Source: Nitrospirota bacterium (lineage in GTDB: Bacteria > Nitrospirota > Thermodesulfovibrionia > SZUA-242). Taken from it: a DNA stretch of 64,000 bases. This document shows positions 21,453 through 50,814 of this stretch, in pieces. The stretch's first letter is position 1. Every line of letters starts with the position of its first letter. The stretch lies in assembly GCA_016212095.1 (NCBI GenBank), contig JACRHH010000024.1:7482-71481 (forward strand), written 5' to 3'. A model generated the notes under the pieces. That model saw nothing but the letters and a program-made list of their open reading frames with translations, was not told the DNA's origin and made no database searches. Made by a program: the position numbers and the translations under genes.

Positions 21453-21484
21453 AACATTATAGCATATCAAAAAGCCTTGCGGCA

Positions 21485-22540: not shown

Positions 22541-22576
22541 GTAATAACTGAGGGTTGCCCGATTGACCGCCGCCAG

Positions 22577-26690: not shown

Positions 26691-26708
26691 TTGCGTTTCG
26701 CCGGGCGG

Positions 26709-26725
26709 TTGGCACGCCATCTGCT
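26709..26725 (+). promoter_or_regulatory. putative sigma-54 (-24/-12) promoter TTGGCACGCCATCTGCT for hsp20-hsp20-clpB
   Basis: GG and GC elements spaced by 10 nt (TGGCAC-N5-CTGC). About 50 nt upstream of the hsp20 RBS GGAAGGAGGA. Confidence 0.55.
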
Positions 26726-26788
26726 TATTAGAAAGCGTCAACGCAATGCGCGTTGGATGAAATACAGATCGGAAGGAGGATGAGGAAC

Positions 26789-27229: not shown

Positions 27230-27246
27230 GCGAGGAGGTGAGGGAT

Positions 27247-27627: not shown

Positions 27628-27677
27628 TAACAGCGTAACATTGCATATCACAGTACGGGCGAACGGCTGTTCGCCGT

Positions 27678-27723
27678 GTAGAGACGCATGATTATGTAGA
27701 GACGCATGATTATGCGTCTCTAC
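27678..27723 (+). terminator. palindromic element copy 2: GTAGAGACGCATGATTAT x2 direct, closed by GCGTCTCTAC (10-bp stem hairpin)
   Basis: Read directly. Preceded by a second hairpin GGCGAAC-ggct-GTTCGCC (27657-27677). Lies between the hsp20 stop and the clpB start. Confidence 0.55.
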
Positions 27724-27739
27724 AAATAAGAGGAAACCA

Positions 27740-34508: not shown

Positions 34509-34513
34509 AACAT

Positions 34514-34541
34514 GCAGAGACGCATTGCAATGCGTCTCTAC
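34514..34541 (+). terminator. palindromic element copy 3: GCAGAGACGCAT-tgca-ATGCGTCTCTAC, 5 nt after the rSAM stop
   Basis: Read directly. 11-12 bp stem. Confidence 0.55.
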
Positions 34542-34557
34542 TGCAATCCGTCTCTGC

Positions 34558-34956
34558 TTAAAAAGCCATGGAACGGACGATATGCTTTTCGAGAAAGAGA
34601 TTCAATGCGGCGGATTGATCCTGGCTCAGTTCCCCGAATTGAAGCCCGCAACGCCGCGTATGAACTCCCTGAACAAACATGCTCTGCCCGTATGGAATTG
34701 TGGCGTCATACACGACCTGGCATGGAATCTGTGACAGGTAAAACGCCTCAGGCGTCATAATTATGTCGATTTTTAACTGTTCATGACCGTTAAGCTTGTC
34801 GGTAAAACCGTCGAATTCCAGATATTCGAAGGCAAGTCCGGTATGGCTGATGTCTTTTATCTGCCCAAGCTTGTCGCAATAAGGTTTTAAGAGCGCAAAT
34901 GCCAGATCCTTTGCGGGATACCGTGTACTGCGCCGTTGTTCAGATGTAGTAACCAT
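34558..34956 (-). CDS. PilZ-domain protein (putative c-di-GMP receptor)
   Basis: RRSTRYP (RxxxR) and DISHTGLAF (DxSxxG) PilZ motifs. Start ATG 34956 with RBS AAGGAGGG. Longer ORF to 35016 starts at TTG. Confidence 0.7.
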   Translation of the reverse strand: MVTTSEQRRSTRYPAKDLAFALLKPYCDKLGQIKDISHTGLAFEYLEFDGFTDKLNGHEQLKIDIIMTPEAFYLSQIPCQVVYDATIPYGQSMFVQGVHTRRCGLQFGELSQDQSAALNLFLEKHIVRSMAF

Positions 34957-35384
34957 ATCGACCCTCCTTGCAACCATTGCCGAGGTGCGGGACAAGATAG
35001 CCAGTCCTCTCAACAATATGATGACGACTAAAAGTTTCCCTCAGTGCTAAAGTCACAATTACCAGAATTAAATGTTATTTATTTAGCAAATGACATGCCA
35101 GTGCAATGTCAAGCTGTTAAAACAAGTAGTTATGCAGCAGCCTGCGGATTGTATCAGACTGTAATGTAAATTATTCCGACACGTTAATCATGTCGGGCAT
35201 TGCCATTCAAATCGATGACGTTTGTCGCTAACTGTTGACCAATCCATCAGAATTTACCATTATTGCCCTCCGGGCTGAATAAACTACTGGAAACACCAGC
35301 TCAGGCAATACTTGTGATCTGAAACGACGTGGCATTGCATGAGGAGCATGTAAGATATTCCGACACAAGCATTCTGATCGTATG

Positions 35385-35433
35385 ATCCAAACGCCGCTTC
35401 CCGCCAATGAAAGGCGGGAAGCGGCGTTTGGAT
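35385..35433 (-). terminator. ~21-bp perfect-stem hairpin (ATCCAAACGCCGCTTCCCGCC-aatgaa-AGGCGGGAAGCGGCGTTTGGAT) 22 nt downstream of the glutamate-synthase operon
   Basis: Read directly. No canonical U-tract. Confidence 0.55.
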
Positions 35434-35454
35434 TGGGCGGTTTGCGAACCTCCC

Positions 35455-37860: not shown

Positions 37861-39505
37861 AGCTTATCCCCAGACGCTCGGCTATGGCCCTGTCGGCCAC
37901 CGAGAGGCCGTCGGACATGCCGATTGGAAGTTCGGTGGAACGCCCCATCGGAGCGAATATTTTTTTCAACTCAACGTCGGCAACGCGGAATACGTCCACC
38001 ACGCGCTGGGCCACCATGTCGGGGTCGAGCCTGCGATAGAGGCGCGGATCCTGCGTTGTGATTCCGCGCGGGCAGCGCCCGGTGTTGCAGAGGTTGCAGC
38101 GGTTATACTCGTCGCCCAGGCAATTGCCGGCCGACTGCATGATGTACTTGCCGATGTCAACGGCTGACGCGCCGAGCATTATCATCGCCGCAGCGTTTGC
38201 GGCCAGATGGCCGCCCTTGCCCATGCCGCCCGCCGCGATAAGCGGAAGCTCGTTCTGCTTGCCCTGGCTAACCAGATCGAGGTAGCACTCGCGGATGTTC
38301 GAGGCGATGGGGTGTCCCATCTTGTCCATCGAAACGTTGTATGCCGCGCCTGTTCCGCCGTCCTCGCCGTCGATGCAGAGAGCGGCGGCGTATGGATTGC
38401 GGGCCAGATTGTTCAAAACCGCGCGCGCCGTCTTTGAGCCGGATATTTTCGGATAGACCGGCACGCGGAAGCCCCAAGCCATCGACATCGCCTGAATCAT
38501 CTTGGCGACAGCCTCTTCAATCGAGTATTTGGTCTGATGAGTTGGCGGAGAGGCCAGATCGATAAACTCCGGAACTCCGCGAATCTTCGCGATAAGTTTC
38601 AGAACTTTGTACGCCATCAGAAGTCCGCCGTCGCCCGGCTTCGCGCCCTGGCCATACTTGATTTCGATTGCCGCCGGGTCTTCCTTCATGTCGGGAATCG
38701 CATGAACGATCTCGTCCCAGCCGAAGTAACCGGAGGCAATCTGAAGAATGAAATACTTCGCAAAACGCGATTTCAGCAGCCGCGGCGGCAGTCCGCCCTC
38801 GCCGCTGCACATCACAACCGGCATGCCCTCAACCTCGTTCAGGTAGGCAACGCCCATCGCAAGCCCTTCCCACATTGTCGGGGAAAGCGCGCCCACAGAC
38901 ATGCTGCCTATGCGGATCGGGAAAATTTCGCGCACCGGCGGGATGAACTTCTCGTTCATCTTCACAAGCTTGCCGTCTTTCACCGCAAGCGGAAGCTCCT
39001 CAGGCGGCAGGATGCGGCCCAGAAGCGAACGAACGCGGAACTCGTGGCGTCCGGCGTCGAGCGCCGGATCGGTGAGCATCGAGATGCGGGTGAACTTCAG
39101 CTTGTCAACAGTCGAGATGGACGGATCGTTCCTGCGTCCGCCGCGCTTGAAGGCGTCGCCCTTCTTGTTCTTGTAGATCAGGAAACGGTTGTGCGAATTG
39201 TAGACCGGCTTGATCGCCTCCGCCGGGCATACCAGACTGCATGTGCCGCAGCCGGTGCAGTAGCGGTCTATGTCGCGCGATTGAACAACAACATGGCGCG
39301 TGACCTTTTTGCTTGTCGGCATGGGCGATGCGCCTTCCGATTCCACCAGTCGCTGGGCCGCAACCGACGGCGTGATAGCCTTCACCGGGCAGACGGCGGT
39401 GCATTTGCCGCAGCGCGTACAGCGGTCTTCCCGCCACTCGATGATATACGGGAAATCCTGTATCGACAGATCGTAGTTGCTGTCTAGTTGCGAAGCTGGT
39501 TCCAA
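37850..39505 (-). CDS. glutamate synthase FMN-binding (GltB central) domain protein with N-terminal 2x[4Fe-4S] ferredoxin
   Basis: CTRCGKCTAVCP and CTGCGTCSLVCP. FMN-domain body (GAKPGDGG..., AAGGMGKGGH). Putative TTG start at 39505 with GAGGAGGTGA RBS overlapping the upstream stop. Confidence 0.75.
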   Translation of the reverse strand: MEPASQLDSNYDLSIQDFPYIIEWREDRCTRCGKCTAVCPVKAITPSVAAQRLVESEGASPMPTSKKVTRHVVVQSRDIDRYCTGCGTCSLVCPAEAIKPVYNSHNRFLIYKNKKGDAFKRGGRRNDPSISTVDKLKFTRISMLTDPALDAGRHEFRVRSLLGRILPPEELPLAVKDGKLVKMNEKFIPPVREIFPIRIGSMSVGALSPTMWEGLAMGVAYLNEVEGMPVVMCSGEGGLPPRLLKSRFAKYFILQIASGYFGWDEIVHAIPDMKEDPAAIEIKYGQGAKPGDGGLLMAYKVLKLIAKIRGVPEFIDLASPPTHQTKYSIEEAVAKMIQAMSMAWGFRVPVYPKISGSKTARAVLNNLARNPYAAALCIDGEDGGTGAAYNVSMDKMGHPIASNIRECYLDLVSQGKQNELPLIAAGGMGKGGHLAANAAAMIMLGASAVDIGKYIMQSAGNCLGDEYNRCNLCNTGRCPRGITTQDPRLYRRLDPDMVAQRVVDVFRVADVELKKIFAPMGRSTELPIGMSDGLSVADRAIAERLGISYAC

Positions 39506-40596
39506 ACCGTCACCTCCTCGGCGTTGGGCGAAATGATGACCATGTCGTACTTCATCGGGTAGATGTCGGTTGACTGATCGCGCTCCGGAATCGCCCGCGT
39601 GATGCCGCATTCCTCCGACATGAGCGCATACTTGCCCTTCACGCCGCCGACCGCGCCGGGCCGGAGTTTCTTTGAATCCTGAACCATGAAGACAGTGCCG
39701 TCGGGCGTGAAGCCGATCACGCAGTTCGGGCCGTCGATGCATAGCGGACGGAGCGATTTTTTCATCAGCCCAAGCGCCTCGCGGTCGCTTCGCCCCTCGA
39801 TCTCGCTGTCCTTGAGCGGCGTGATCACATCTTTATAGTAATTAAGCGGAAAACCGAGCGTCCGGCAGGTGTAGTGCAGGATGTGGGTGAAAACCTCGCT
39901 GTCCGAGTTGTAGCCTATATAGCCGGGGTTGCCCCGGCTCATCAGGAATTCGCGGATCGGCACGAAGGCGGTGTTCTCGCCGTTGGTCATCGATGCGTAG
40001 CCCTGAATGAAAAACGGGTGACAGGCGTACAGGTAAATTGCGTAGTTGGTGTTCTGGCGGCCTTGCGCCAGCGCGATTTTGGCCTTCAGGGAATCGGACT
40101 TGTCGAGGCCGAAAAACTGGGCAACCTCAAGCGGATCGCCAACTTCCTTAAGCGTAAGCACGTCGGGGTAGAACGAAAACGCGAATATCGACTGATCCGG
40201 TTCGCCGATTGCGCGAAGCTCAAGGCGGGTGCGCATGAGCAGGTCTTCCTTCTCGGACATCGGCCTGTCGCGCCACTCTTCCGGATATTCGTATGCCTTG
40301 GCGATGTAGAAATCGCGTTTCTGTATGCCGGGCATCGGCTTGATCCTGGGCGTCCACATATGCTTAACGCGGAAGCCCTTCGACTTCATGAAGTCGTCCA
40401 GAAGGGTCATGCCCTTCTGGGAGCATATGCCCGAAAGGATCGGATACTCCTTCAATCCCTCGAAATCCCCGCCAAGGTTCTTGAGCATCAGCCCAAGCCC
40501 GGAGCCGTCGTGGCCTTCCTTCATGGTTTCGAGGGCCATGATGGTTTCCATGGGCGAGAAATAGTCACTGGCTGTAATAGCGCTCAAACGGCACAT
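39484..40596 (-). CDS. class-II glutamine amidotransferase (GltB N-terminal domain-like, archaeal-type glutamate synthase subunit)
   Basis: MCRLSAI N-terminal Cys1 nucleophile directly after Met. RBS GAGGTGA. Confidence 0.8.
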   Translation of the reverse strand: MCRLSAITASDYFSPMETIMALETMKEGHDGSGLGLMLKNLGGDFEGLKEYPILSGICSQKGMTLLDDFMKSKGFRVKHMWTPRIKPMPGIQKRDFYIAKAYEYPEEWRDRPMSEKEDLLMRTRLELRAIGEPDQSIFAFSFYPDVLTLKEVGDPLEVAQFFGLDKSDSLKAKIALAQGRQNTNYAIYLYACHPFFIQGYASMTNGENTAFVPIREFLMSRGNPGYIGYNSDSEVFTHILHYTCRTLGFPLNYYKDVITPLKDSEIEGRSDREALGLMKKSLRPLCIDGPNCVIGFTPDGTVFMVQDSKKLRPGAVGGVKGKYALMSEECGITRAIPERDQSTDIYPMKYDMVIISPNAEEVTVWNQLRN

Positions 40597-40957
40597 AATT
40601 TCACCTCGTCGTGTTTGGGAGAACACCGGAATGCCGCAAAATCGCGTAGTGCCGGAACATCTCCAGACAGCTAGATAATTTATTACAAAGGTGGAAGTTC
40701 AGTCAAATTCAGGGCAGAAGCGGAATTAGCCGCATGTTGATACGTTTTTCTTGACTTCCAGCAAAACCGGCGGCTATTTTACGGCATCCGTGCGGTATGC
40801 CAAGGGGGGGGAGCAGTGCAGGATAGTCTCTGGCGGCAGCGAAAAATTCAACGAGAAACCGCCTGTCTATTCTGAAATAAGCCTTCTCTGGCCGGCTGGT
40901 GGCGGGAGATTATTGTGGCGATCGGATAAGCCCGGCTGCAATCAGGCCCATACAAGC

Positions 40958-42274
40958 TCACATCCCCTCGCTCATCGCCTTTTTCGACACCTTCCACGGA
41001 TTCCATGGGTCTTCGTAGGAACGCTTGTAGAAGAACTCAAGCGTGTAGGCCACCGTCCGCACAACCCGCAGGTAAAGTCCGGCGTAGAGCGGCGCGAGCG
41101 GGAGGTAGATGAAGAGCTTCACATCGTTGCGCCATCTTTCCGAGAGCGAGAGCATCACGATGAACTGAAGCAGGTTGAACGAGAGGTAGATGAGATAGTT
41201 CATCGGGATGATGAACTTCAGCATCGAGTGGTAGTTGTAGGCCATGTCGGCCATGTAGACGAACCACTTTATGTCGAGCACCACGTTGAAGAAGATGTTT
41301 TCAACAAACGAGAAAAAGTTTGAGAAAGAGAAGTTCTCGGTAGGCAGATACACATCCTTGTGCTTGCGAATGCGGAACCGCACCAGCGATTTATACCACC
41401 GAAGGCGCTGTTTCGTAAGCCCTGTGTACGTGGCCGGAGCGGTGGTGAAGCAGATGGCGGTCTTTTCGAAATGAATCTTGTAGCCGATCTTTCGAATCTT
41501 CACCGTAATGTCGCCGTCCAAACCGGGGCCGATGTCCCAGCCTCCCACGCGGTCGAGAATCTCGCGCCGGAACGCGCCGAATGCTCCGGGTATCACCCGG
41601 TAGATCCCCAGAAACGAGGCCACAGCCCGGCCAACAGAGATCGATTTCAGATACTCGACAGCCTGCATGCTGGTGCAGACGCTCTCGTCGGCGTTTCTCA
41701 CCTTGATATTGCCGCCTATTGCGCCGATCTCGTCGTCCATGTAGAACGGAACGAGGATGTTTTCAACCGCGTCGCGGTCGAACGACGAGTCGGCGTCAAG
41801 CAGAAGCACCAGCCCGCCTTTCGAGTACCGCAGGCCCAAGTTCGACGCCGACGCCTTTCCGCCCCTGATCTCGCTTCGCAGGTAGACGTCCAGAAAGCCG
41901 TTTTCCTTCAGATCGTCGCAGATGGTCTTGGTGTCGTCGTCCGAGCCGTCGTCAACCACGATGATTTCGAGGTTCTTGTACGTCTGCTCCCTGAGCGAGC
42001 GCACGAGCTTGTAGATGTTCTCGCCCTCGTTCTTTCCGGGAACTATCAGCGAAACCAGCGGAAGTTCGTCGAACAGCGCCTTTCTGGCCAGCCGCTCCCT
42101 GTTTCTGCTTGCAAAGCGCTTGACATGATACGCGCCCAGGAATACGAAATCGAAAACCACGTATCGCGGGAATTCCAGTATGAACGCGAACCAGAAGAAC
42201 CGGACGAGCTTGTGCGGATCGACGGTCTGCCAGAAGTTGAAGAACTCCAGAATGGGGTCTATGAAATCGTCCAT
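40958..42274 (-). CDS. family-2 processive beta-glycosyltransferase (NodC/chitin-synthase/PgaC/cellulose-synthase-like), multi-TM
   Basis: LVSLIVPGKNEGENI, DDGSDD (DxD), QRLRW (QxxRW) processivity motif. N- and C-terminal TM helices. Confidence 0.8.
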   Translation of the reverse strand: MDDFIDPILEFFNFWQTVDPHKLVRFFWFAFILEFPRYVVFDFVFLGAYHVKRFASRNRERLARKALFDELPLVSLIVPGKNEGENIYKLVRSLREQTYKNLEIIVVDDGSDDDTKTICDDLKENGFLDVYLRSEIRGGKASASNLGLRYSKGGLVLLLDADSSFDRDAVENILVPFYMDDEIGAIGGNIKVRNADESVCTSMQAVEYLKSISVGRAVASFLGIYRVIPGAFGAFRREILDRVGGWDIGPGLDGDITVKIRKIGYKIHFEKTAICFTTAPATYTGLTKQRLRWYKSLVRFRIRKHKDVYLPTENFSFSNFFSFVENIFFNVVLDIKWFVYMADMAYNYHSMLKFIIPMNYLIYLSFNLLQFIVMLSLSERWRNDVKLFIYLPLAPLYAGLYLRVVRTVAYTLEFFYKRSYEDPWNPWKVSKKAMSEGM

Positions 42275-42278
42275 GCAA

Positions 42279-43682
42279 TTATGGCGGGGCGATTTTGCCC
42301 ACGAAGGCGTCGAGGCTGAATTCCCCGGAAATTGGTACTATTTCGGTTTCGATCTTCGGTTCGAAGCCTGTGAAGTTGTCGTGGATCAGTTTGAGCAGAT
42401 TAGCCTTCAGCCGTTCCACCGGAATGCTTGCGGCCTCCAGAGGCGTGTCCGTGAAGAAGAACAGCAGCGTTGCCTCGTCGAGGTAGGAGATCATGTCGCT
42501 TGGCCGGATGCTGCCCTTTATGATCTCGATGATCTCCGGGAATATCTTTTCCCTGGTAACGCCCCGCACATAAAGATCGTAGAAGTTCACGAAATGCAGA
42601 TGGGCGACGCAGCCGTTTCTGGCCACGCGCTTGAAGCGCTCCACCTCGTATTCGATGTATTTGTTGAAGATGCCCATGTCCACAAGGCCTGGAATGCGTA
42701 TCACGTCCTTCATCGAGATGGTCACGCCGTATATGGCGGCGTGCTCGCCCTTCGATGTGAGCCGGTAGCTTTTCACGTCTTTTTCGATGAGGTTTTCTAC
42801 CAGAGTGTCGTTCTTGCAGTTGAAACAGAAGGCGCGCACCTTCGGATCCTGAAATTTTTCATTGCAGGTATTGCAGAAGTTGAGCGTGGCCGGCTTGTCG
42901 TAATCCACGCCGATGTGGCGCACCAGCCTGCCGCACTTGGGGCATATCATGTCGGCGCCCTCCTGCTTCCGGAAGTCGCTTTCCGGGCCGACGTAGGCGC
43001 AGGTGAAGTGATGCACGAGGTCTTCGGTCTTCAGGTTCGGGCCGCCGCACTTGGGGCAGGCCTCCCTGAAATTCAGGAATCCGCTGAAGCACTTGTCGCA
43101 AAGATGAATCCTGTCAACGAAAGTCCCCTCGATAAGGGTTTCGTGCTCGGCCATGTCGATGATGCTGAAGACGCGATGCTGATCCTCGCGGTCGAAGTTC
43201 ACCGAAACAAGCGGAAAGCTGTACCCGACGCGCGAACACGAATCGAGAACCGGCTCCATAACCATCTCCCTTGTGTAGAGAAACCGCAGCATCTTCATCA
43301 TGACGTACATCTCGAACGATTCGGTCTTGATGAGCTCCAGCCTGCTGATCCTGTCCTGAAGGTTTTTCATCCTGTAACCGATTTTCGACATTACAGCCGG
43401 ATCGATCTCTCCGTCGGAGAGCGCAAGAAGCGAGGCGTCCTTCACGCCCTCGTGAGATATGAGAAAAACCGGCTTCAGATATATGTTGTTCAGATCGAAG
43501 GTTCTCAGGCGCTTCAGGATGACGCGGGCGGCGTCGGTGTCGGTTGCGTCAAGCACCACGCCGTTATACTTGATGAACGTCTGCGCGTTAATCTCGTCCG
43601 GCTCGGAGAACGAAACCAGTTCAACCTCCTCGTTGCTGTTGTTGAACGAGGAGCCTTCCCGTATTATCTTGCTGATGCTCAT
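42279..43682 (-). CDS. Zn-ribbon-rich protein with C-terminal degenerate GGDEF domain (SYLDEA replaces RYGGDEF; RxxD I-site retained): candidate c-di-GMP receptor of the synthase operon
   Basis: Three CxxC...CxxC pairs (CDKC...CPKC, CPKCG..., CNTCN...CFNCK). C-terminal 170 aa align with the GGDEF fold (IPGLVDMGIFNKY... / RPSDMISYLDEATLLFFFTDTPLEAASIPVERLK). Confidence 0.6.
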   Translation of the reverse strand: MSISKIIREGSSFNNSNEEVELVSFSEPDEINAQTFIKYNGVVLDATDTDAARVILKRLRTFDLNNIYLKPVFLISHEGVKDASLLALSDGEIDPAVMSKIGYRMKNLQDRISRLELIKTESFEMYVMMKMLRFLYTREMVMEPVLDSCSRVGYSFPLVSVNFDREDQHRVFSIIDMAEHETLIEGTFVDRIHLCDKCFSGFLNFREACPKCGGPNLKTEDLVHHFTCAYVGPESDFRKQEGADMICPKCGRLVRHIGVDYDKPATLNFCNTCNEKFQDPKVRAFCFNCKNDTLVENLIEKDVKSYRLTSKGEHAAIYGVTISMKDVIRIPGLVDMGIFNKYIEYEVERFKRVARNGCVAHLHFVNFYDLYVRGVTREKIFPEIIEIIKGSIRPSDMISYLDEATLLFFFTDTPLEAASIPVERLKANLLKLIHDNFTGFEPKIETEIVPISGEFSLDAFVGKIAPP

Positions 43683-43700
43683 TGGCTAATAATGTCTCCG

Positions 43701-44750
43701 CTATATCGATTTCCGTAGAAAAACCTTCACGCTCAGTTTATAGTACTGCTTCCACTCAAGCCCTGCCTCCCTGTTTGGCGGCTCGATGTCCACGACAACC
43801 GTCCGCTTCACCGGCTCGTAACGCTTCTGGAACTCAGGCGGCAGGGGCTGGGTGGCGAAATAGTATCGTCTTATCACCCCGGTTGCCCGCGTGCCGTCAG
43901 GAAACCGAATTGAAACCTGCGCGCCGTTTCGCAGGTGCTTAATGTCCTCCTGCTCGAAAAACGCCTTTATTGCAATCTCTTCGGGCTTGTATATCTCCAT
44001 GATGGTGTCGCCCTTGAGCACAACCTCGTGGTCGTTGGGGTAGATGCGCGTCACCACGCCGTCTTCCAGCGCCAGGAATGTCTTTGCTCCGGCGGCAGAC
44101 TGGGCGGACTGCGCGGCCTGCCAGGCTTGCAGGTTTCTTGCCGATGCCGTTGCATTGATCCCGCGTATCCGGCCCAGATACTCCTTCATGATTCTTATCT
44201 CTTCGCCCGCCTTCGCGACAAGCGATTCGGTGTTTCTGATGCTCTCGGCCATTTCGCCAAGCCTGCCCGGATAATGCGCGTCGAGCAGCGCCTGGTTTTT
44301 AATCGTATCGTAGCCTGACTTGAGCTTTGCAAGCGATTCCTCGTAGCCTTTCCTGTCCAGCTCCCTGAGTTGGATGGCCTGAATCGTGCGGGAAATTTCC
44401 CGCTCGATGTCGGGCGAATAGAACGAGCTGTCCGATGCCTGCCGGAGGGCTGCATCGCCGCGCGATTCCTCCGCGTATGTGAAAAGCCTGTCGTTTCGCT
44501 TTACGGACGCGCCCTCCTTCACGAATATCTTCAACACCCGGATGTCGCTTGTATGCTGGATGTAGAGCTTGTCGAATATCACCTGCCCGTCGCCTTCGGC
44601 ATGGATCGAGCTGTCGATGAAGTAAAAGATGACGCTGATGACAATCAGGCCCAGCACCAGGAAATAGATATACTTGCCCCAGTTGCGCTTTCGCTCAGGC
44701 GGCTTTTCGTCGGTCGATCTGAAATAGCTGAACCGCTTGTTGAGTCTCAT
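43701..44750 (-). CDS. HlyD-family periplasmic adaptor (membrane fusion protein)
   Basis: N-terminal TM anchor, lipoyl-like and coiled-coil segments. C-terminal beta-barrel segment. Confidence 0.75.
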   Translation of the reverse strand: MRLNKRFSYFRSTDEKPPERKRNWGKYIYFLVLGLIVISVIFYFIDSSIHAEGDGQVIFDKLYIQHTSDIRVLKIFVKEGASVKRNDRLFTYAEESRGDAALRQASDSSFYSPDIEREISRTIQAIQLRELDRKGYEESLAKLKSGYDTIKNQALLDAHYPGRLGEMAESIRNTESLVAKAGEEIRIMKEYLGRIRGINATASARNLQAWQAAQSAQSAAGAKTFLALEDGVVTRIYPNDHEVVLKGDTIMEIYKPEEIAIKAFFEQEDIKHLRNGAQVSIRFPDGTRATGVIRRYYFATQPLPPEFQKRYEPVKRTVVVDIEPPNREAGLEWKQYYKLSVKVFLRKSI

Positions 44751-44754
44751 CCTG

Positions 44755-46890
44755 TTACTGCCGCCTTTGTAGTGGAAGCGCCTCGTTCATGCTCTTCTCG
44801 TCAAGCTCGATCAAGCCCTGCATGTCATGCACAGCCACTCGCGAAACGCCGGTTGCGTCGATCACCTTGCCGATGAATTCCTCCATCTCAAGCCGGTTTG
44901 CGAAATCCTTCGTCCGTATCGCGATGACTGTTTTTGGGCCGAAGGCGTCAATCTCCTCGCGCACCTTCCGCTTCAGCTTTTCGATGTCGGTTATCTCGTA
45001 GGCCATCACATATATCCTGTCGGCAAGCGAAGCGATCTGCCGCAATGTTTCCTCCGGGAAAAAGACAGGAATCGATACGCCCAGTTCCAGCTTCGCCGCG
45101 GAAGTTGCCTCCCGCGCCGCCTTGAGCATCGCAATGAAGGCCGCAAGCAATTCATCTTTCTTCTCCCTCCACTCCGGAAGCGTATGCGGCTCAACGTCGA
45201 GATGAACGCCGTCGAAGCCGAGCGAATGGGCCTGTTCGGCTATTTGGGCAAGCTTGGCGTGGTTTGCGGGACGTACAAGCTCGTTCGATCCGGCAAGCGC
45301 GTCTGTTTTCATGCCGCTCTCTCGCGCCTTTGCAAGTAACGCGGAAAGCCTGCCGGTGTCGGTTTTTTCGCCGATGGACAGCATTACGCCGCGCATCTCC
45401 TGATGCGCAAGATACATGGCAAGGAAACCGGTATCGATGCCGTTTACAGCCGCCGACCAAACGTATATTGATCGCTCGCCGCGATAACGCTCCGGCTCGC
45501 CGGGATTTTTCACGACGGCAACATGATCGAACACCGCCTCGCCGCCGGAAATCCGCTGAATTTCCAGCAGTTTCAGATATAGCATCTGCTTGACCTCTAC
45601 GCTCTCGAACTCCACGGCGAACTGTTCGTCCAGATACTGCATCATGTTCAGCGGGCTGTAGAGCGGATCGTCATACCCGCGTCTGACATCCTCCCTGCGT
45701 ATGCGTTCCCCGATCAGCCGCTTCTTGTGCGCGAGCTTCAGGTAATCGCTCATCTTGTACTGATATTCGTAATACGCGTCGCGCAGACGGTTCAGGTCGG
45801 CTTCGCGCCGTTTTTCCGCGTTCAGTTCGGCAAGCCTCTCCTCGATGTCGCCTATCTTCGAGTAATCGCGCCCGGACGCCGGAATCGGAACGCGGATGCT
45901 GACTCCGGCGGCCACGCTGTCGCGCATTCCACCGGCGAAAAGGTTGTCCATGTTGTAGCGGGCGAATACGCGCAGATTTGTTTCGGCAAGCAGATAATTG
46001 TCAGGACGCTTCAGCCGCTGCTTCTCGGCGTCGATCACATCGCCGTAGAACGGGTCTTTTTCCGCATCGCCAAGCAACGCGCCGATGTCGATGTCAAGCA
46101 CAGGCAGGTCTTTAGCGGCATCCGGCAGTTCCATTTCAGGTGTCGGCGCAAAAGTTCTGTTGAAGTTCAGGTAGTTGCGAAGCATTGTCTGGACGGAGGC
46201 CTTTTCCTGCTCAAGCCGGATGACATCCTCCCACTGAAACAGCCTGTAATGGCCCAGCTTGCGGGTGATTTCGATGTATCTGCCAAGCTCGTCCAGCCGT
46301 TCCTGAAGCATCCGCATCTTTGCAAGATTGAACAGGTAGATCGCGCGGTAGTAACTTCGCCCGAACGATTCGTCAACAGCCGCCCGCCGCGCCAGAACCT
46401 CTGCAAGCCTGATCTCGCCGCGCAGTCGTTCCTTCTCCGTGCCGCCGCCGAAATAGCCGTCTTTAAGCAGCTCCCATTCAAGCCCCAGATACGACGAACT
46501 GTCCAGCGTATCCCGCGCCTCATCGATCACCCCGTTTTTCAGGTTTGTGGCATACGATCCGGTGAGTTTCAGGCCAAAATCTTTTTCGATGGATGCGAGC
46601 CGTTCGATTCCGATCCTGCGCCTTAGTTCCTCCCCGGTCTCGCCGGCTGATGTCCCGGCCAGGAATCTTCTTGCGTTTTCAAGCTCGTTGCCGACTGGCG
46701 GCTCGCCGATGGTCAGCCTGGAATCGATGATGCGCTCGATTTCCTGAAAAAGACCTGCCGCGCTGCCGGTATTGGCCGAATTGGCGGCTTCGGCAGTATC
46801 CGCCGCTTCCACCTGAACTGCCTGAACTGGAACAACGCAGGCCAGAAACGCCAGCGCGGCCACAATAATTGCCTTCCATCCATGGAACAT
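44755..46890 (-). CDS. TolC-like outer-membrane factor fused to a C-terminal GH18-like (chitinase-fold) domain
   Basis: Signal peptide MFHGWKAIIVAALAFLACVVPVQA. OMF-like alpha/beta repeats in N-terminal 420 aa. C-terminal FDGVHLDVE (DGxDxDxE-like) and YVMAYE (MxYD-like) GH18 signatures. Start uncertain (ORF open to 47064). Confidence 0.55.
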   Translation of the reverse strand: MFHGWKAIIVAALAFLACVVPVQAVQVEAADTAEAANSANTGSAAGLFQEIERIIDSRLTIGEPPVGNELENARRFLAGTSAGETGEELRRRIGIERLASIEKDFGLKLTGSYATNLKNGVIDEARDTLDSSSYLGLEWELLKDGYFGGGTEKERLRGEIRLAEVLARRAAVDESFGRSYYRAIYLFNLAKMRMLQERLDELGRYIEITRKLGHYRLFQWEDVIRLEQEKASVQTMLRNYLNFNRTFAPTPEMELPDAAKDLPVLDIDIGALLGDAEKDPFYGDVIDAEKQRLKRPDNYLLAETNLRVFARYNMDNLFAGGMRDSVAAGVSIRVPIPASGRDYSKIGDIEERLAELNAEKRREADLNRLRDAYYEYQYKMSDYLKLAHKKRLIGERIRREDVRRGYDDPLYSPLNMMQYLDEQFAVEFESVEVKQMLYLKLLEIQRISGGEAVFDHVAVVKNPGEPERYRGERSIYVWSAAVNGIDTGFLAMYLAHQEMRGVMLSIGEKTDTGRLSALLAKARESGMKTDALAGSNELVRPANHAKLAQIAEQAHSLGFDGVHLDVEPHTLPEWREKKDELLAAFIAMLKAAREATSAAKLELGVSIPVFFPEETLRQIASLADRIYVMAYEITDIEKLKRKVREEIDAFGPKTVIAIRTKDFANRLEMEEFIGKVIDATGVSRVAVHDMQGLIELDEKSMNEALPLQRRQ

Positions 46891-47030
46891 GATCTGTCCG
46901 AATAACCTCTTAACTTCATTATCGTTTTTTTGCTGGATTTCTTGAGCGGAGAAGGTGAACTCTTGTTCCGGCGTCATGCTAAGATTAAATCCATGAGACT
47001 CTCTTGTTTCGGGAATGGAGGAGTACTTGC

Positions 47031-47267
47031 ATGGTAATGATTGAAGCAACCGTGGTTGACCCAACCCATTTGGAACTCGCGCAGCCCATCGCGGCGCTTC
47101 GAGGCCAGACTATTTTGGTTTCTGTCGCAGATATGCTTGGAGAGGATTCTGAGCGGCGAGATTGGCTGGATGTTTCAACCATATCGTTGCAGGCTGCGTA
47201 TGGCGATTCCGAACCCGACTACTCGCCTTCCATGGTCAAAGAGAACAATCCGGATTACGTTGCATGA
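47031..47267 (+). CDS. mazE: MazE/AbrB-like antitoxin
   Basis: Small acidic C-terminus, SpoVT/AbrB-like N-terminus (MIEATVVDPTHLELAQPIAALRGQTILVSV). Stop overlaps the toxin start (ATGA). Confidence 0.6.
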   Translation: MVMIEATVVDPTHLELAQPIAALRGQTILVSVADMLGEDSERRDWLDVSTISLQAAYGDSEPDYSPSMVKENNPDYVA

Positions 47268-47605
47268 AGGAAGCCGATATCATTCTCATGCCTTTGCCTC
47301 AGGCTGACGGGATAGTTAAAAACCGTCCGGCGCTTCTGCTTCGCGAGCTTCCGCCGTTTGGCGACTTCCTTGCCTGCGGCATCAGTACCCGGTTGCATCA
47401 AGCCGTTCCCGGATTTGACGAGATAATATCCGAAAACGATGCGGATTTTGCGGACTCCGGCCTTCTTACAGACTCTGTTGTGCGCCTTGGATTCCTGGCT
47501 GTTCTGCCACGAGAACGAATCCGTGGCACCATAGGCCAAATAGCTCCCGCGCGCCACTCCCGTCTGCTGGTGAAGCTCAGCAAGTATTTGGTGGCCAAGC
47601 TCTGA
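47264..47605 (+). CDS. mazF: MazF/PemK-family endoribonuclease toxin
   Basis: DIILMPLPQADG..KNRPALLL...GDFLACGISTR matches PemK/MazF. Confidence 0.8.
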   Translation: MKEADIILMPLPQADGIVKNRPALLLRELPPFGDFLACGISTRLHQAVPGFDEIISENDADFADSGLLTDSVVRLGFLAVLPRERIRGTIGQIAPARHSRLLVKLSKYLVAKL

Positions 47606-47648: not shown

Positions 47649-48863
47649 ATGAAATTTGATAAATCAATGCGCGTAAAAACAGGCATCGACCGGATTAATC
47701 AGCGCTTTCCCGCGCAGCTTCGCGCCTGCCGCGTTGGCTTGCCGCGCGCCTGCCGCGTTGGTCTAATCGCCCATCAGGCGTCTGTCGATTGCCGTCTGCG
47801 CCATGCCGCAGACATCTGCCTCGCCTCGAAGAATTTCCGCCTGGCCACCCTGTTCGGCCCGCAGCACGGGTTCACCGGACACACTCAGGACAACATGATC
47901 GAGTGGCATGGATTCCGCGATCCGCGCACCGGGCTTCCGGTTTACAGCCTCTACGGCGAAACGCGCAAGCCGTCGCCCGACATGCTGGACGGCATCGACG
48001 CTCTTGTCATCGACATGCAAGACGTTGGCGCGAAATATTACACATTTATATGGACGATGGCGCTCTGCATGGAGGCCGCCGCCGAGGCGGGCAAGGCGGT
48101 GGTTGTGCTCGACCGCCCGAATCCGCTTGGCGGCGCGATGGAAGGCCCGGCAACCAGGCCTGAATGGGCGTCGTTCGTGGGCCTGAAACCGCTTCCGGTT
48201 CGCCACGGCATGACGATTGGCGAGATAGCGCTTTATCTCAAGGGCGAGTTCTATCCTTCTGTCGATCTCACGGTCATTCCCATGCGTGGCTGGCGGCGCG
48301 GGATGTATTTCGATGAAACCGGCCTGCCGTGGGTGATGCCGTCGCCCAACATGCCCACGCTCGACACAGCGATTGTCTATCCGGGCATGTGCCTGCTCGA
48401 AGGAACCAACATCAGCGAGGGGCGCGGCACCACGAGGCCGTTCGAGCTGTTCGGCGCGCCGTTTATTGATTCCGCCCGGCTTATCGCCCGGCTGAACGAT
48501 TTCCGGCTTCCGGGTGTTTTCTTCCGCCCAGCCTCGTTTCTGCCCACGTTTCAGAAACATGCCGGAGAACTCTGCGGCGGGGCGCAGATTCATGTAACCT
48601 CGCGTCGGGCGTTCAAACCGTTCAAAACCGCAGTGGCGATCCTGAAAGCAGTTCGCGAGCTCTGGCCGGATGAACTTAAATGGAAAGAGCCGCCGTACGA
48701 GTACGAGTCTGAAAAGCTGCCGATAGACATACTGGCCGGAAGCGACCGGCTGAGAATGGGGATAGATTCGGGCGAGGGGCTTGACGCGATGGAGAGATGG
48801 TGGGCCGCGGAATGCCGCAGCTTCGCGCGGCGATATGCGGAGAGGTATCGATTATATGAATAG
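47649..48863 (+). CDS. namZ: DUF1343 / NamZ-like exo-beta-N-acetylmuramidase
   Basis: DUF1343 body (RVGLIAHQASVD..., GIDALVIDMQDVGAKYYTF...). Contains an in-frame 21-bp tandem duplication near the N-terminus. Confidence 0.7.
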   Translation: MKFDKSMRVKTGIDRINQRFPAQLRACRVGLPRACRVGLIAHQASVDCRLRHAADICLASKNFRLATLFGPQHGFTGHTQDNMIEWHGFRDPRTGLPVYSLYGETRKPSPDMLDGIDALVIDMQDVGAKYYTFIWTMALCMEAAAEAGKAVVVLDRPNPLGGAMEGPATRPEWASFVGLKPLPVRHGMTIGEIALYLKGEFYPSVDLTVIPMRGWRRGMYFDETGLPWVMPSPNMPTLDTAIVYPGMCLLEGTNISEGRGTTRPFELFGAPFIDSARLIARLNDFRLPGVFFRPASFLPTFQKHAGELCGGAQIHVTSRRAFKPFKTAVAILKAVRELWPDELKWKEPPYEYESEKLPIDILAGSDRLRMGIDSGEGLDAMERWWAAECRSFARRYAERYRLYE

Positions 48864-50814
48864 ATCGGGCGGTTTTACCGCCTTCATTCCGGCAGCCGGT
48901 TTCGGCACGCGGTTGCGGCCCATAACCAATCACATGCCCAAGGCTCTTTTGCCTGTAATCGGCCAGCCGCTTGTCGGGCTTGTTGCGGCGCGTGTGGTTG
49001 AGGCGGGTGCATCTGCCATTGGCATAAATGCGCGTCACCTGCCGGATATGATTGCGGCATGGGCGGCGGAGTTGGAGTATGCAAAACTCATAACGCTGTT
49101 TCGTGAGCATGAGGTTCTTGGCACAGGCGGAGCCATATGGAACGCGCGCGATTTCCTGCGCGGCGACTACTTTCTGCTTCACAACTGCGACATCCTCTCT
49201 GACATCGATCTGCGGCGGCTGATCGCGCATCACGAGGCGTCCGGCAACCTGATAACGCTTGCGGTGCATGACAGGCCGGGGCTGAATAATCTGCGATTGA
49301 ACCCGGACGGCTTGCTGGTGGGTGTGGAGAGAAGCAACTCCCCCCTTGCCCCCCTCAATGAGGGGGGTGGCGAAGCCGGGGAGTTTGCCACTACAACTCC
49401 CCCCTTTACAACTCCCCCCTTGCCCCCCTCATTGAGGGGGGTGGCGAAGCCGGGGGGAGTTTCTTCTTCCGCCTACACCGGCATCGCCGTCTATTCCCGC
49501 CGGTTCATCGATTACCTGCCCGTCGGCCCGTCCGATGTGGTGGCCGGATGGCTTCGAGCGGCTGCCATCGGTGAGAGAATCGGCGCGCTCGATTTCACCG
49601 GATGCTTCTGGGAAGACCTCGGCACGCCAGCCGCCTACGCCTCCGTTGTCTGGCGGATGCTCCGCGCCGAAGGCGAACGCGCGTTTTTCAATCCCGCAGC
49701 CAGGGGCTGCAACATGGCGGCGCTCATGGGCATGGCGTCGGTTGAGGCGGGCGCGCGAATAACCGGCCCGGTTACGTTCGATCATGCAATCGTGCTTCCT
49801 GGCGCGAATATCGGCGGCGGCGAGGCAGTGATGGAGGTAATTGCCAACTCAATCGCCGGGCCGGATTATCGAATAGCCATACCGCCGCCCGATGACGCCG
49901 GCAATGTTAGCGGCGGCGGTTCAGACCGGGTTTACCGGCGCGTCCGGCGTGATGGCGGCACGGTTATTTCGATGTCAACTAGCTCAACCGATCCGGATTA
50001 CGAGCGCCAGATTGCGTATTCAAGATATTTCGCCGCGCGAGGTATTCCGGTTCCGAGGCTGATCGACGCCGACGCCGATGCGCGAACAGCCGTTTTCGCC
50101 GATCTTGGCGACCGCTCGCTCTACACATTCGGCAAATGCGCCGAAGCGCGCGGGCTTGTCGAGCCGGTTTATCTGGCGCTGATGAAAACAATGGCGCAAC
50201 TCCACGCGCCGTTCGATGCAGAAGCCGCTCCGGCGTTCCGGATGTTCGACTACGAGCATCTTCGATGGGAAACCTATTATTTTTTAAACGAATTTGTGCG
50301 CGGGCTTTGTGGCATGGAACCTGCTGATCCGAAGCGTCTGGACGCCGAATTCCATGCGCTTGCCGTGAAGGTGGACGGCTTCGGCAAGCGGATTGTGCAT
50401 AGAGACTGCCAATCGCAGAACATCATGCTTGCGCCCGATGGCTCCCCGTATCTCATTGACTATCAGGGCGCGAGGCTCGGCCCGCCCGCCTACGACATGG
50501 CGTCGCTTCTGTGGGATCCGTATGTGCCGATGCCGGATGATATGCGCGAAAGGCTGGTTTCGGCGTATGAAGCCGCGCGGAAAGAGAACGAGGGCGCGGC
50601 GTTCGACATGGCCGAGTTTCGTGCGTCGCTTCTGCCATGCCGCCTCCAGCGCCACATGCAGGCGCTTGGGGCCTACGCGTTTCTGTCCGGAAAGAAGGGG
50701 AAGACGTATTTCAGGAAGCACATCCCGGCGGCGGTTGAGATGCTTCGCGCCGAGGCGGCTCTGGTTGCGGATGAGATGCCGGAGTTGGCGGGGGTTGTGA
50801 GGGGGCTGAAGTAA
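48856..50814 (+). CDS. fused N-acetylmuramate-1-phosphate uridylyltransferase (MurU-like NTP-transferase) + N-acetylmuramate/N-acetylglucosamine kinase (AmgK-like APH-fold), with two MITE-like repeat copies inserted in-frame in the MurU domain
   Basis: AAGFGTRLRPIT NTP-transferase motif. Domain resumes after the insertion (YTGIAVYSRRF...WEDLGTPAAY). Kinase motifs HRDCQSQNIML, IDYQGARLGP. Start ATG 48856 overlaps the namZ stop. Confidence 0.75.
   Translation: MNRSGGFTAFIPAAGFGTRLRPITNHMPKALLPVIGQPLVGLVAARVVEAGASAIGINARHLPDMIAAWAAELEYAKLITLFREHEVLGTGGAIWNARDFLRGDYFLLHNCDILSDIDLRRLIAHHEASGNLITLAVHDRPGLNNLRLNPDGLLVGVERSNSPLAPLNEGGGEAGEFATTTPPFTTPPLPPSLRGVAKPGGVSSSAYTGIAVYSRRFIDYLPVGPSDVVAGWLRAAAIGERIGALDFTGCFWEDLGTPAAYASVVWRMLRAEGERAFFNPAARGCNMAALMGMASVEAGARITGPVTFDHAIVLPGANIGGGEAVMEVIANSIAGPDYRIAIPPPDDAGNVSGGGSDRVYRRVRRDGGTVISMSTSSTDPDYERQIAYSRYFAARGIPVPRLIDADADARTAVFADLGDRSLYTFGKCAEARGLVEPVYLALMKTMAQLHAPFDAEAAPAFRMFDYEHLRWETYYFLNEFVRGLCGMEPADPKRLDAEFHALAVKVDGFGKRIVHRDCQSQNIMLAPDGSPYLIDYQGARLGPPAYDMASLLWDPYVPMPDDMRERLVSAYEAARKENEGAAFDMAEFRASLLPCRLQRHMQALGAYAFLSGKKGKTYFRKHIPAAVEMLRAEAALVADEMPELAGVVRGLK
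49337..49462. repeat. two tandem copies of the nested-palindrome GC-rich element (ACTCCCCCCTTGCCCCCCTCA(A/T)TGAGGGGGGTGGCGAAGCCGGGG(GG)AG) inside the murU-amgK coding sequence: 126 nt, 42 codons, in-frame
   Basis: Read directly. Same family as 22427-22540. Translates as SPLAPLNEGGGEAGEFATTTPPFTTPPLPPSLRGVAKPGGVSSS. Confidence 0.85.

Follow-up and report, generated by a model that had tools for sequence, protein, structure and literature searches.

Do four adjacent genes of a Nitrospirota bacterium, encoding a glycosyltransferase, a soluble regulator and two envelope proteins, constitute a secretion system of their own, and if so, what would it export and how would it be controlled? A sequence-only reading of the window (the whole stretch of 64,000 nucleotides analysed here) had proposed a c-di-GMP-gated system for a chitin-like polysaccharide. 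Its description of four minus-strand genes lying head-to-tail 4-18 nt apart was confirmed, with spacers of 4, 18 and 4 nt between the open reading frames, and all four domain assignments (GT2, GGDEF, HlyD, TolC-like/GH18) hold by profile and fold searches. The genes are numbered here from the start of the operon:

44755..46890, minus strand: gene 1 (711 aa), the operon's first gene, encoding a secreted protein in which a TolC-like outer-membrane duct is fused to a GH18-like glycanase
43701..44750, minus strand: gene 2 (349 aa), an HlyD/EmrA-type membrane fusion protein (Pfam HlyD_3)
42279..43682, minus strand: gene 3 (467 aa), a soluble regulator with pseudo-receiver, TackOD1 and degenerate GGDEF domains (Pfam TackOD1, AlphaFold2)
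40958..42274, minus strand: gene 4 (438 aa), a membrane-embedded processive family-2 glycosyltransferase, the synthase (Pfam, NCBIfam)

The same four genes occur in identical order in practically all related loci (about 85 examined, counted where the contig is long enough), which come from Bacteroidota, Desulfobacterota, Nitrospirota, Campylobacterota and Aminicenantes. The flanking genes are unrelated between these loci, and no conserved fifth gene was found among the neighbours of the cassette. Because the four genes recur together and in the same order, the arrangement is not due to chance and represents a conserved unit; the gene-neighbourhood comparison suggested earlier thus came out in its favour across at least five phyla. 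The regulator is present in at least 570 species genomes, and the relatives of gene 1 form 718 clusters at 50% identity, nearly all of them full length. Most of the cassettes are held by Bacteroidota.

The enzyme at the centre of the cassette is encoded by gene 4, which scores above the cut-offs of Pfam GT2 families (Glycos_transf_2, E=1.5e-28; Chitin_synth_2, 6.7e-13), has transmembrane segments at both ends, and matches the sequences of solved hyaluronan (HAS), cellulose (BcsA) and chitin synthases. Its processivity motif is located as follows:

41396..41410, minus strand: QRLRW (aa 289-293), the processive-synthase motif of gene 4

Further motifs are DDGSDD (aa 108), DAD (aa 160), GAFGAF (aa 230) and LDGD (aa 252). 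The processive GT2 with a QxxRW motif recognised earlier is borne out, since DDGSDD, DAD, LDGD and QRLRW are all at least 95% conserved among 75 homologues; with its full motif set, gene 4 qualifies by sequence as a processive membrane GT2 synthase. No PilZ domain was detected in profile searches of the cassette proteins.

Which sugar this synthase polymerises is less firmly indicated. The best curated NCBIfam match is PgaC_IcaA (TIGR03937; 5.2e-52), whose 177.2 bits lie far under the cut-off of 422.3, so that gene 4 was rejected as a PgaC/IcaA equivalog and is regarded as a distant relative. The NodC model (E=1.6e-19, 70 bits) and chitin synthase match more weakly than PgaC/IcaA, and the CelA model reaches 35.6 bits (E=2.7e-9). 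PgaC/IcaA is a beta-1,6-GlcNAc synthase, and PgaC/IcaA, NodC and chitin synthases all use UDP-GlcNAc. As these similarities suggest, gene 4 most likely uses UDP-GlcNAc or some other 2-acetamido sugar as its substrate; a match so far below the equivalog cut-off would fix neither sugar nor linkage. The chitin-like beta-1,4 polymer proposed earlier is therefore left unproven, the nearest relative being a beta-1,6 enzyme.

For the passage across the envelope, gene 2 supplies an adaptor. It matches Pfam HlyD_3 with 37.7 bits (cut-off 22.2) and, below cut-off, the NCBIfam models type_I_hlyD, RND_mfp and EmrA; its family profile matches solved T1SS adaptors, EmrA, HlyD and MacA (8dck at 1.5e-8). A single N-terminal transmembrane anchor (aa 23-51) precedes a helical hairpin with some 40 residues per helix, a rough estimate made by eye from the alignment. 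The hairpin tip reads LDxxxPxxL and is unlike R-L-S, reportedly the TolC-binding motif of adaptor hairpin tips, a point against the export model given below. The HlyD-type periplasmic adaptor recognised earlier is upheld by the Pfam score, the anchor and the profile matches, which assign gene 2 to the HlyD/membrane fusion protein family with a predicted inner-membrane anchor, and judging from its relatives it is an adaptor of the class serving transporters without a large periplasmic domain (T1SS adaptors, EmrA, MacA).

The outer part of the conduit is predicted in gene 1. Although a TTG at 47064 would lengthen its reading frame, translation from the ATG at 46890 begins with a signal peptide, MFHGWKAIIVAALAFLACVVPVQA, and gives a protein identical to the 711-aa database entry P0121. 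The FLAC sequence in this peptide could be a candidate lipobox, which would make the protein a lipoprotein; its Cys is missing in some relatives. Gene 1 is organised as follows:

46819..46890, minus strand: signal peptide (aa 1-24), from the translation and its hydrophobic segment
45547..46635, minus strand: TolC/outer-membrane-factor-like domain (aa 86-448), from the AlphaFold2 model and Foldseek
44758..45522, minus strand: GH18-like (beta/alpha)8 barrel (aa 457-711), the C-terminus of gene 1
45190..45204, minus strand: HLDVE (aa 563-567), corresponding to the catalytic D-x-E pair of GH18, where strand 4 ends C-terminally
44995..45006, minus strand: MAYE (aa 629-632), corresponding to GH18 MxYD, where strand 6 ends

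Structure prediction, which had been named as a check on the fusion, gave a model (pLDDT 89.5, pTM 0.81) combining a TolC fold with a C-terminal GH18-like TIM barrel. The duct domain is built as a twofold repeat; both halves contain a pair of beta strands and long antiparallel helices, and the helices (146-214 and 340-405) are TolC-like in length. The top 38 Foldseek matches are all outer-membrane factors (E 1e-11 to 1e-8), among them TolC, CusC, OprN, SilC, VceC, CmeC, OprM and MtrE, with target TM-scores of about 0.5-0.6. Pfam OEP (PF02321) does not match the window protein at E up to 1; it matches 33 of 72 relatives at E up to 0.1, the best at 3.6e-13. In the model the N-terminal part has the fold of an outer membrane factor or TolC protomer, in agreement with the outer-membrane-factor-like protein postulated earlier.

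The nearest structures of the C-terminal TIM barrel are GH18 chitinases, and D565-x-E567 and M629-x-Y631 are conserved at the expected places on strands 4 and 6. Among 72 sequences H563 and D565 never vary, and E567 and P568 show at least 90% conservation; M629 and Y631 also reach this level. The GH18 catalytic DxxDxDxE is nevertheless incomplete: its middle Asp is replaced by the invariant His (H563) and its first Asp lacks conservation. In MAYE, Glu follows the Tyr where GH18 MxYD has Asp. The Pfam GH18 model (PF00704, cut-off 29.6 bits) gives borderline scores, 26.7-26.9 bits with the whole protein and 29.8 bits with the isolated domain, and at E up to 0.1 it matches 7 of 20 relatives as isolated domains and 9 of 72 at full length. 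The GH18-type signatures noted earlier thus stand with respect to the fold and fail with respect to the complete catalytic motif, and the barrel is best described from its sequence as a divergent GH18-like family, not as a clear GH18 member.

In TolC the C-terminus is found at the equator of the periplasmic barrel, on its outer face, and the GH18-like barrel is predicted to be attached at the duct's equator, within the periplasm. To our knowledge, every other synthase-dependent system has a periplasmic glycanase (BcsZ, the PgaB C-terminal domain, PelA, AlgL, XcsC), and the barrel may be the in-cis equivalent, shortening or removing stray polymer in the periplasm. Against a trimming role it counts that a glycanase outside the duct of a sealed adaptor-duct conduit would have the polymer hidden from it. 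Dedicated lytic enzymes open the cell wall for assembly in other secretion systems, and within the same architecture the barrel might be a local peptidoglycan hydrolase that opens the wall for the envelope-spanning complex. We consider this unlikely; if it were so, the barrel would say nothing about the chemistry of the polymer.

The product itself could also be smaller than a matrix polymer. The cassette might export a glycolipid or short oligosaccharides, in which case a NodC-like GT2 would make chito-oligosaccharide-type signals for the efflux-type adaptor and duct to pump out. In favour of this, the GT2 has only 438 aa, being small like NodC and PgaC, the NodC model does match, the usual cargo of adaptor-duct systems is small molecules or unfolded proteins, and the cassette lacks a partner corresponding to PgaD or BcsB. 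The PgaC/IcaA model, however, scores 177 bits against 70 for NodC, the cassette has no linked acyltransferase or deacetylase of the Nod type, an endo-type GH18-like barrel fused to the duct is better suited to a polymer, and polymer export via HlyD/TolC has precedents (PMC13438883), so that we give such a product only a slim chance. Long-chain export by the synthase, adaptor and duct is the reading followed below; it has against it that no deacetylase or other modifying enzyme was found within the cassette.

How this export would be controlled depends on gene 3, a protein of 467 aa in which no transmembrane segment is predicted. The top matches of its AlphaFold2 model (pLDDT 85.5) in a fold search are the REC-GGDEF proteins PleD, WspR and DgcR, and it can be divided as follows:

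43344..43682, minus strand: receiver-like domain (aa 1-113), from alternating beta/alpha elements and from the match of the whole chain to the folds of PleD and WspR
42759..43301, minus strand: TackOD1 zinc-cysteine domain (aa 128-308), Pfam PF18551
42282..42695, minus strand: degenerate GGDEF domain (aa 330-467), from family profile and fold
42411..42506, minus strand: candidate residues of a c-di-GMP inhibitory site, RPSD (aa 393-396) and R424, from alignment to 3ign and DgcR

The receiver-like domain, as read from the alignment, is without the acidic pair and conserved Lys of true receivers; some relatives do match Pfam Response_reg. TackOD1 (E=2.6e-52, 177.5 bits against a 32-bit cut-off) forms the protein's invariant core; it contains one HxxC and five CxxC motifs, whose Cys and His are invariant or nearly so in 31 sequences, eleven Cys being conserved; the motif count agrees with the published description of the domain (PMC5847659). 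TackOD1 is a known Pfam family of unknown function. The GGDEF domain is recognised through the family profile, which matches the crystal structure 3ign at E=1.9e-11, and by Pfam GGDEF (PF00990) in 9 of 31 relatives, the window protein alone giving only faint NCBIfam GGDEF matches. At the GG[DE]EF position it has DEATL (aa 402-406), the family consensus there being N/S/D-x-S-T-L and never GG, and strand 1 no longer has its metal-binding Asp residues, which rules out an active diguanylate cyclase. Taken together with the fold matches, this substantiates the catalytically dead GGDEF fold of the sequence-only reading; its label of a GGDEF/Zn-ribbon protein was right about the degenerate GGDEF but missed that the protein is chiefly the named family TackOD1, plus a pseudo-receiver.

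Could the dead domain still bind c-di-GMP? An inhibitory site, defined as an RxxD five residues upstream of the GGDEF position together with a second Arg, is found in the window sequence: in the alignment to 3ign and DgcR, RPSD falls on their RxxD and R424 on the Arg of their 'ER' motif. All three residues are kept by the window protein and its closest clade; among 191 relatives R393 occurs in 35% and the full set of R393, D396 and R424 in 37 (19%). R424 accompanies R393 in 37 of 43 cases, against about 15 expected if they were independent, a figure inflated by relatedness of the sequences. The c-di-GMP gating proposed earlier is plausible for the window on these residues, but most relatives lack them, which excludes c-di-GMP as the general signal of the family.

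Indeed, there is nearly an even chance that the regulator senses no c-di-GMP at all and that its GGDEF domain is a structural or docking module only, the signal arriving either by the receiver-like domain, through phosphorylation where a lineage has a real one, or by TackOD1 (metal or redox state). Bacteroidota, with most of the cassettes, encode few c-di-GMP enzymes, in keeping with this reading. The scarcity of R393 and of the full set, the genuine Pfam receiver domain of some cassettes and the invariance of TackOD1 with its eleven Cys all point the same way, as do archaeal TackOD1 proteins, in which the domain is a response-regulator output domain with no GGDEF attached (PMC5847659). The retention of all three site residues in the window protein and its closest clade speaks against it, as does the co-occurrence of the two Arg, inflated as it is. 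These archaeal proteins (REC-TackOD1 or REC-wHTH-TackOD1, near type IV pilus loci) share with gene 3 the five CxxC and one HxxC motifs and a receiver-type partner, whereas gene 3 has a dead GGDEF in addition and belongs to a cassette with a polysaccharide synthase.

PelD had been suggested as the model for such gating. Dead-GGDEF accessory proteins of synthases with an RxxD site, like gene 3, comprise BcsE, PelD, PssE and YdaK, of which BcsE is the closer analogue: this protein of E. coli-type cellulose systems is a soluble, degenerate REC*-GGDEF* c-di-GMP receptor with an inhibitory site (PMC8892547), and the same pairing is seen in gene 3. Gene 3 differs in the 180-residue TackOD1 between receiver and GGDEF, in the absence of the BcsE N-terminal domain and of BcsQ, BcsR and BcsF partners, and in that only a minority of its family keeps RxxD.

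Is the cassette as a whole a known system? Maeda et al. 2018 reportedly described the cyanobacterial extracellular cellulose system XcsA/XcsB/XcsC with TolC. A synthase with an HlyD-like adaptor and TolC has been proposed for this XcsAB-TolC system, which is c-di-GMP-controlled (PMC8892547, PMC12430437), and BgsAB-TolC has been reported for the mixed-linkage beta-glucan of Sinorhizobium meliloti (PMC13438883, PMC5567048), so that pairing a synthase with a tripartite adaptor/outer-membrane-factor conduit, presented earlier as possibly undescribed, is already a known kind of export. The Xcs synthase is a BcsA homologue with built-in PilZ making cellulose; Xcs relies on a shared housekeeping TolC whose gene lies elsewhere, and its glycanase is a separate endoglucanase. 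The cassette has a PgaC-like synthase without PilZ, a dedicated duct within the operon, the GH18-like barrel fused to that duct, and its regulator is a separate TackOD1 protein. Bgs resembles the cassette in its operon of GT2 synthase and HlyD-like adaptor, its requirement for TolC and its activation by c-di-GMP, a plausible trait of the cassette; the ligand, however, is bound by BgsA's own C-terminal domain, and Bgs uses housekeeping TolC, has no glycanase in the module and makes a glucan. The cassette belongs to tripartite synthase-adaptor-TolC export by architecture only, its proteins not being orthologues of XcsA/B or BgsA/B, as seen from the mere 35.6 bits with the CelA model and the missing PilZ domain. 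A Pga/Ica system (PgaABCD) was rejected: no PgaA (TPR-porin), PgaB (deacetylase) or PgaD domains were found in profile searches of the four proteins or among conserved neighbours, and export would proceed through adaptor and TolC-like duct instead. The statement that the locus does not follow Bcs, Pga, Pel, Alg or Nfr layouts remains valid, and the literature searched contains no description of the four-gene cassette.

We consider it probable that the four genes make up a self-contained module for the synthase-dependent secretion of an exopolysaccharide, built on a tripartite, efflux-pump-like plan. From the folds, motifs and gene order observed, we infer how it may assemble, what it may make, which ligand it may bind and what its glycanase may do. 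The synthase at the inner membrane would polymerise a nucleotide sugar and thread the chain across that membrane, the HlyD-type adaptor would oligomerise around it with its helical hairpin reaching up, and the TolC-fold domain of gene 1 would serve as the dedicated outer-membrane exit duct. The regulator (pseudo-receiver/TackOD1/dead GGDEF) would control the synthase post-translationally, in this organism probably by binding c-di-GMP at the retained inhibitory site, like BcsE, PelD and PssE, and in other lineages probably through a real receiver domain or another signal.

The general kind of machine, a synthase with an efflux-pump-like duct, is known; this particular combination of parts was found in no paper searched, and its dedicated, glycanase-fused duct, its TackOD1 regulator and its likely N-acetylhexosamine polymer look new. 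Most likely, the cassette is a compact and widely conserved module by which a sugar polymer is made at the inner membrane and exported through an efflux-pump-like duct of its own.

The cassette at 40958-46890 comprises four minus-strand genes, separated by intergenic spacers of 4, 18 and 4 nt:

44755-46890, minus strand: gene 1, duct/glycanase ORF, 711 aa, transcribed first
43701-44750, minus strand: gene 2, adaptor ORF, 349 aa, transcribed second
42279-43682, minus strand: gene 3, regulator ORF, 467 aa, transcribed third
40958-42274, minus strand: gene 4, synthase ORF, 438 aa, transcribed last

The sequence-only reading had placed the four genes correctly. Although the gene 1 ORF stays open upstream as far as a TTG at 47064, the better start is the ATG at 46890, because a ribosome-binding site (AAGAGG) precedes it, a typical signal peptide begins there, and the 711-aa product is identical to the one annotated in the source, a metagenome-assembled Nitrospirae genome. 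The domain assignments made for the four parts were likewise borne out by Pfam, family-profile and fold matches, the last domain being GH18-like only. Promoter and terminator scans gave matches no more numerous than in shuffled sequence.

Conservation of the gene neighbourhood, which had been put forward as a check on the operon, was found across phyla. In the best 80 loci and five more reached via protein look-ups, the four genes stand in identical order and close together wherever the contig is long enough, with variable flanks. Of the species genomes scanned, at least 570 encode a relative of the regulator. Besides the window's Nitrospirae genome, carriers are mostly Bacteroidota, and include Desulfuromonadales, Desulfobacteraceae, a genome labelled Deltaproteobacteria, Aminicenantes and Nitratifractor. 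A fifth conserved gene beside the cassette was considered and rejected, the largest flanking gene cluster being present in only 13 loci. In several Bacteroidota loci from other genomes (L021, L028, L030, L034, L057, L069) an extra GT2-like ORF lies just upstream of the duct gene.

The neighbouring ORFs of the window were also rejected as parts of the cassette; a glutamate synthase group lies downstream, while upstream, on the opposite strand, are namZ and a PemK/MazF-like ORF:

within 35455-40626, minus strand: glutamate-synthase-like gene with GXGXG, 4Fe-4S cluster and pyridine nucleotide oxidoreductase domains
within 35455-40626, minus strand: gene with a Glu_synthase domain and ferredoxin motifs
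within 35455-40626, minus strand: 380-aa ORF beginning MCRLSAI, no Pfam match
47162-47605, plus strand: PemK/MazF-like toxin ORF (Pfam PF02452, E=3.9e-6), in the gap between cassette and namZ
47649-48863, plus strand: NamZ gene, exo-beta-N-acetylmuramidase, divergent from the cassette
48781-50814, plus strand: fused nucleotidyl-transferase and APH-type kinase ORF, following namZ

The glutamate-synthase-like genes just downstream of the cassette are split, and the 380-aa ORF looks like the amidotransferase subunit belonging to them. Two small ORFs upstream of the PemK/MazF-like ORF (47004-47307; neither matched Pfam) could encode an antitoxin, and namZ with the fused ORF (47649-50814) resembles a unit for recycling cell-wall sugars of the AmgK/MurU type, merged into one protein. 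The G+C content is 0.52-0.57 at 16001-28000 and 34001-36000 and about 0.60 elsewhere in the window.

The product of gene 4 is a family-2 glycosyltransferase (Pfam PF00535, E=1.5e-28) with hydrophobic segments at each end, in which the motifs DDGSDD, DAD, GAFGAF, LDGD and QRLRW are each at least 95% conserved among 75 homologues. Its sequence matches solved membrane-integrated hyaluronan, cellulose and chitin synthases, and the top curated model is that of PgaC/IcaA (TIGR03937, 5.2e-52), at 177 bits far under the 422-bit cut-off, followed at a distance by NodC (70 bits) and CelA (36 bits). Owing to this motif set, the matches to solved synthases and a best model that stays below its cut-off, gene 4 is classed as a putative processive synthase that forms its own clade, with GlcNAc-polymerising enzymes as its closest neighbours. 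Its conservation across phyla is very high (E-values of 1e-150 to 1e-237). The C-terminal tail SYEDPWNPWKVS (aa 419-438; 40958-41014, minus strand) is near-invariant in the 75 homologues, which come from several phyla, and could be where the regulator or the adaptor docks.

The product of gene 2 belongs to the membrane fusion proteins, with a Pfam HlyD_3 score of 37.7 bits (cut-off 22.2) and a single N-terminal anchor. A direct search of the single sequence against solved structures gave no match; the family profile matches solved type I secretion adaptors, EmrA, HlyD and MacA. Adaptors of this class serve inner-membrane partners without large periplasmic domains, and gene 2 would for this reason suit a synthase.

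For gene 1, an AlphaFold2 model built on an alignment of 72 database proteins (pLDDT 89.5, pTM 0.81) predicts for aa 86-448 the plan of a TolC protomer, with two repeats of two strands and long helices each, and the top 38 Foldseek matches of this part are all outer-membrane factors, including TolC, CusC, OprN and OprM. The window protein has no match to Pfam OEP, which is matched by 33 of the 72 relatives (best 3.6e-13), and its profile found no TolC among solved structures by sequence. The sole match of that profile is weak (E=3e-4 to 1e-3) and concerns 10yv_A, a Cellulomonas fimi protein of 275 aa that was entered in the PDB as "Putative GH97" and has the motif LDVEPxTLPxW in common with the barrel (45190-45204, minus strand), a hint that the barrel may belong to a wider family of stand-alone proteins.

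Within the barrel (aa 457-711), H563 and D565 are invariant and E567, M629 and Y631 nearly so, and in the model these residues lie where strands 4 and 6 end, the positions of D-x-E and M-x-Y-D in GH18. Since the GH18 signature has lost its middle aspartate to the invariant histidine H563, and since the Pfam GH18 score lies at the 29.6-bit cut-off (whole protein 26.9 bits, isolated domain 29.8), the barrel is termed GH18-like rather than a member of GH18. The exhaustive search with representatives recovered the gene 1 family, in which fusion of duct and barrel is the norm: its 718 clusters at 50% identity are nearly all 650-720 aa long and match end to end. Unlike the synthase, gene 1 evolves fast. 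We know of no TolC-family protein with a duct fused to a glycanase.

In the simplest reading, the cassette would be a complete synthase-dependent secretion module of tripartite type, in which the synthase would polymerise and translocate the chain, the adaptor would span the periplasm and the TolC-fold domain would form the exit through the outer membrane. The C-terminus of TolC lies outside the periplasmic barrel, at the equatorial domain, and for this reason the fused GH18-like barrel should lie in the periplasm, three copies of it surrounding the duct. To our knowledge, no synthase-dependent system characterised so far lacks a glycanase or lyase in the periplasm, and the barrel may be this enzyme provided in cis. 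A weakness of this model is that a sealed conduit would conceal the chain from an enzyme mounted outside the duct; removal of stray polymer is one possible role. A fair rival is that the barrel cuts peptidoglycan locally rather than the polymer, as suggested by the presence of Cwp19 and SleL among its matches.

If the barrel acts on the polymer, as the tripartite model proposes, its residues bear on the nature of the chain. Substrate-assisted catalysis in GH18 uses the D-x-E pair and a tyrosine; their retention in the barrel, together with a synthase nearest to PgaC, NodC and chitin synthase, points to a polymer of a 2-acetamido sugar. The earlier proposal of a chitin-like beta-1,4-GlcNAc polymer goes beyond the evidence: the linkage is not readable from sequence, and the synthase clade appears nearest to PgaC/IcaA.

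The regulator encoded by gene 3, for which membrane-segment prediction returned none, is built around a central TackOD1 domain (aa 128-308; Pfam, E=2.6e-52) with five CxxC and one HxxC, the same motifs as described for the family. Three tests identify the C-terminal part (aa 330-467) as a GGDEF domain: the family profile matches GGDEF crystal structures (E=1.9e-11), 9 of 31 relatives match Pfam GGDEF, and the best fold matches of the AlphaFold2 model (pLDDT 85.5) are the REC-GGDEF proteins PleD, WspR and DgcR. This domain is predicted to be catalytically dead, because DEATL stands in place of GG[DE]EF and the metal-binding aspartates are lost. The fold of the N-terminal part (aa 1-113) is receiver-like, without the acidic pair and the lysine of true receivers, as assigned by reading the alignment; some relatives do score as true receivers. 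A metagenomic variant locus (L084:7615-9452) has a regulator with a genuine Pfam receiver and an extra 119-aa gene between adaptor and regulator.

Alignment to solved GGDEF domains places R393-P-S-D396 on the RxxD inhibitory site of c-di-GMP binding and R424 on the second arginine of that site. Among 191 relatives, D396 is retained in 89%, R393 in 35% and R424 in 23%, and all three occur together in 37, including the window protein and its nearest clade; R424 accompanies R393 in 37 of 43 cases against about 15 expected under independence, a figure inflated by shared ancestry. Binding of c-di-GMP by the window regulator is thus plausible, with the chances about evenly divided; the suggested c-di-GMP gating exceeds the evidence, and such binding is not the rule across the whole family. 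The general signal of the family is probably a different one, because TackOD1 is the invariant part and a true receiver is present in some lineages.

The layout is less unusual than the sequence-only reading had claimed. A combination of synthase, HlyD-like adaptor and TolC as the exit was proposed for the cyanobacterial cellulose system Xcs, which also has a separate endoglucanase, XcsC (PMC8892547, PMC12430437); this tripartite-export model is still unvalidated, partly since TolC is encoded elsewhere (PMC12430437). Likewise, the mixed-linkage glucan that BgsA/BgsB make in rhizobia was recently shown to depend on TolC (PMC13438883). In both systems TolC is a housekeeping protein and the c-di-GMP sensor lies inside the synthase, whereas the cassette has a dedicated duct fused to a glycanase, a separate TackOD1 regulator and a synthase that is PgaC-like, not BcsA-like. 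The Pga system itself was ruled out, PgaA, the deacetylase and PgaD all being absent. The closest known analogue of the regulator is BcsE, a soluble REC*-GGDEF* partner of cellulose synthase (PMC8892547). The function of TackOD1 was described as obscure in 2018 (PMC5847659), and among the open-access papers and preprints searched in full text, the domain appears in that paper only. The same literature yielded no description of the cassette, in keeping with the claim that the system is undescribed, and one may exist elsewhere.

We give an even chance to the larger proposition that the cassette represents an undescribed, phylum-spanning class of exopolysaccharide machinery, in which a PgaC-like synthase exports an N-acetylhexosamine polymer via a dedicated TolC-fold duct carrying its own GH18-like enzyme. 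The class would extend to at least 570 species genomes, with Bacteroidota the commonest carriers. The cassette would also give the orphan TackOD1 its first functional context: the domain would form the core of a regulator bound to the synthase, responding to c-di-GMP in some lineages and, in others, to phosphorylation or a different signal.

Synthase-dependent systems, such as those for cellulose, PNAG, Pel and alginate, underlie much of bacterial biofilm biology, and very little is known about the matrix polymers of environmental Bacteroidota, Nitrospirota and Desulfobacterota. With all the parts encoded in a single operon of about 6 kb that occurs in hundreds of species, the idea of tripartite export becomes directly testable. 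The cassette also offers a way into the function of TackOD1, and its patchy inhibitory site would permit c-di-GMP-dependent and -independent control of one machine to be compared.
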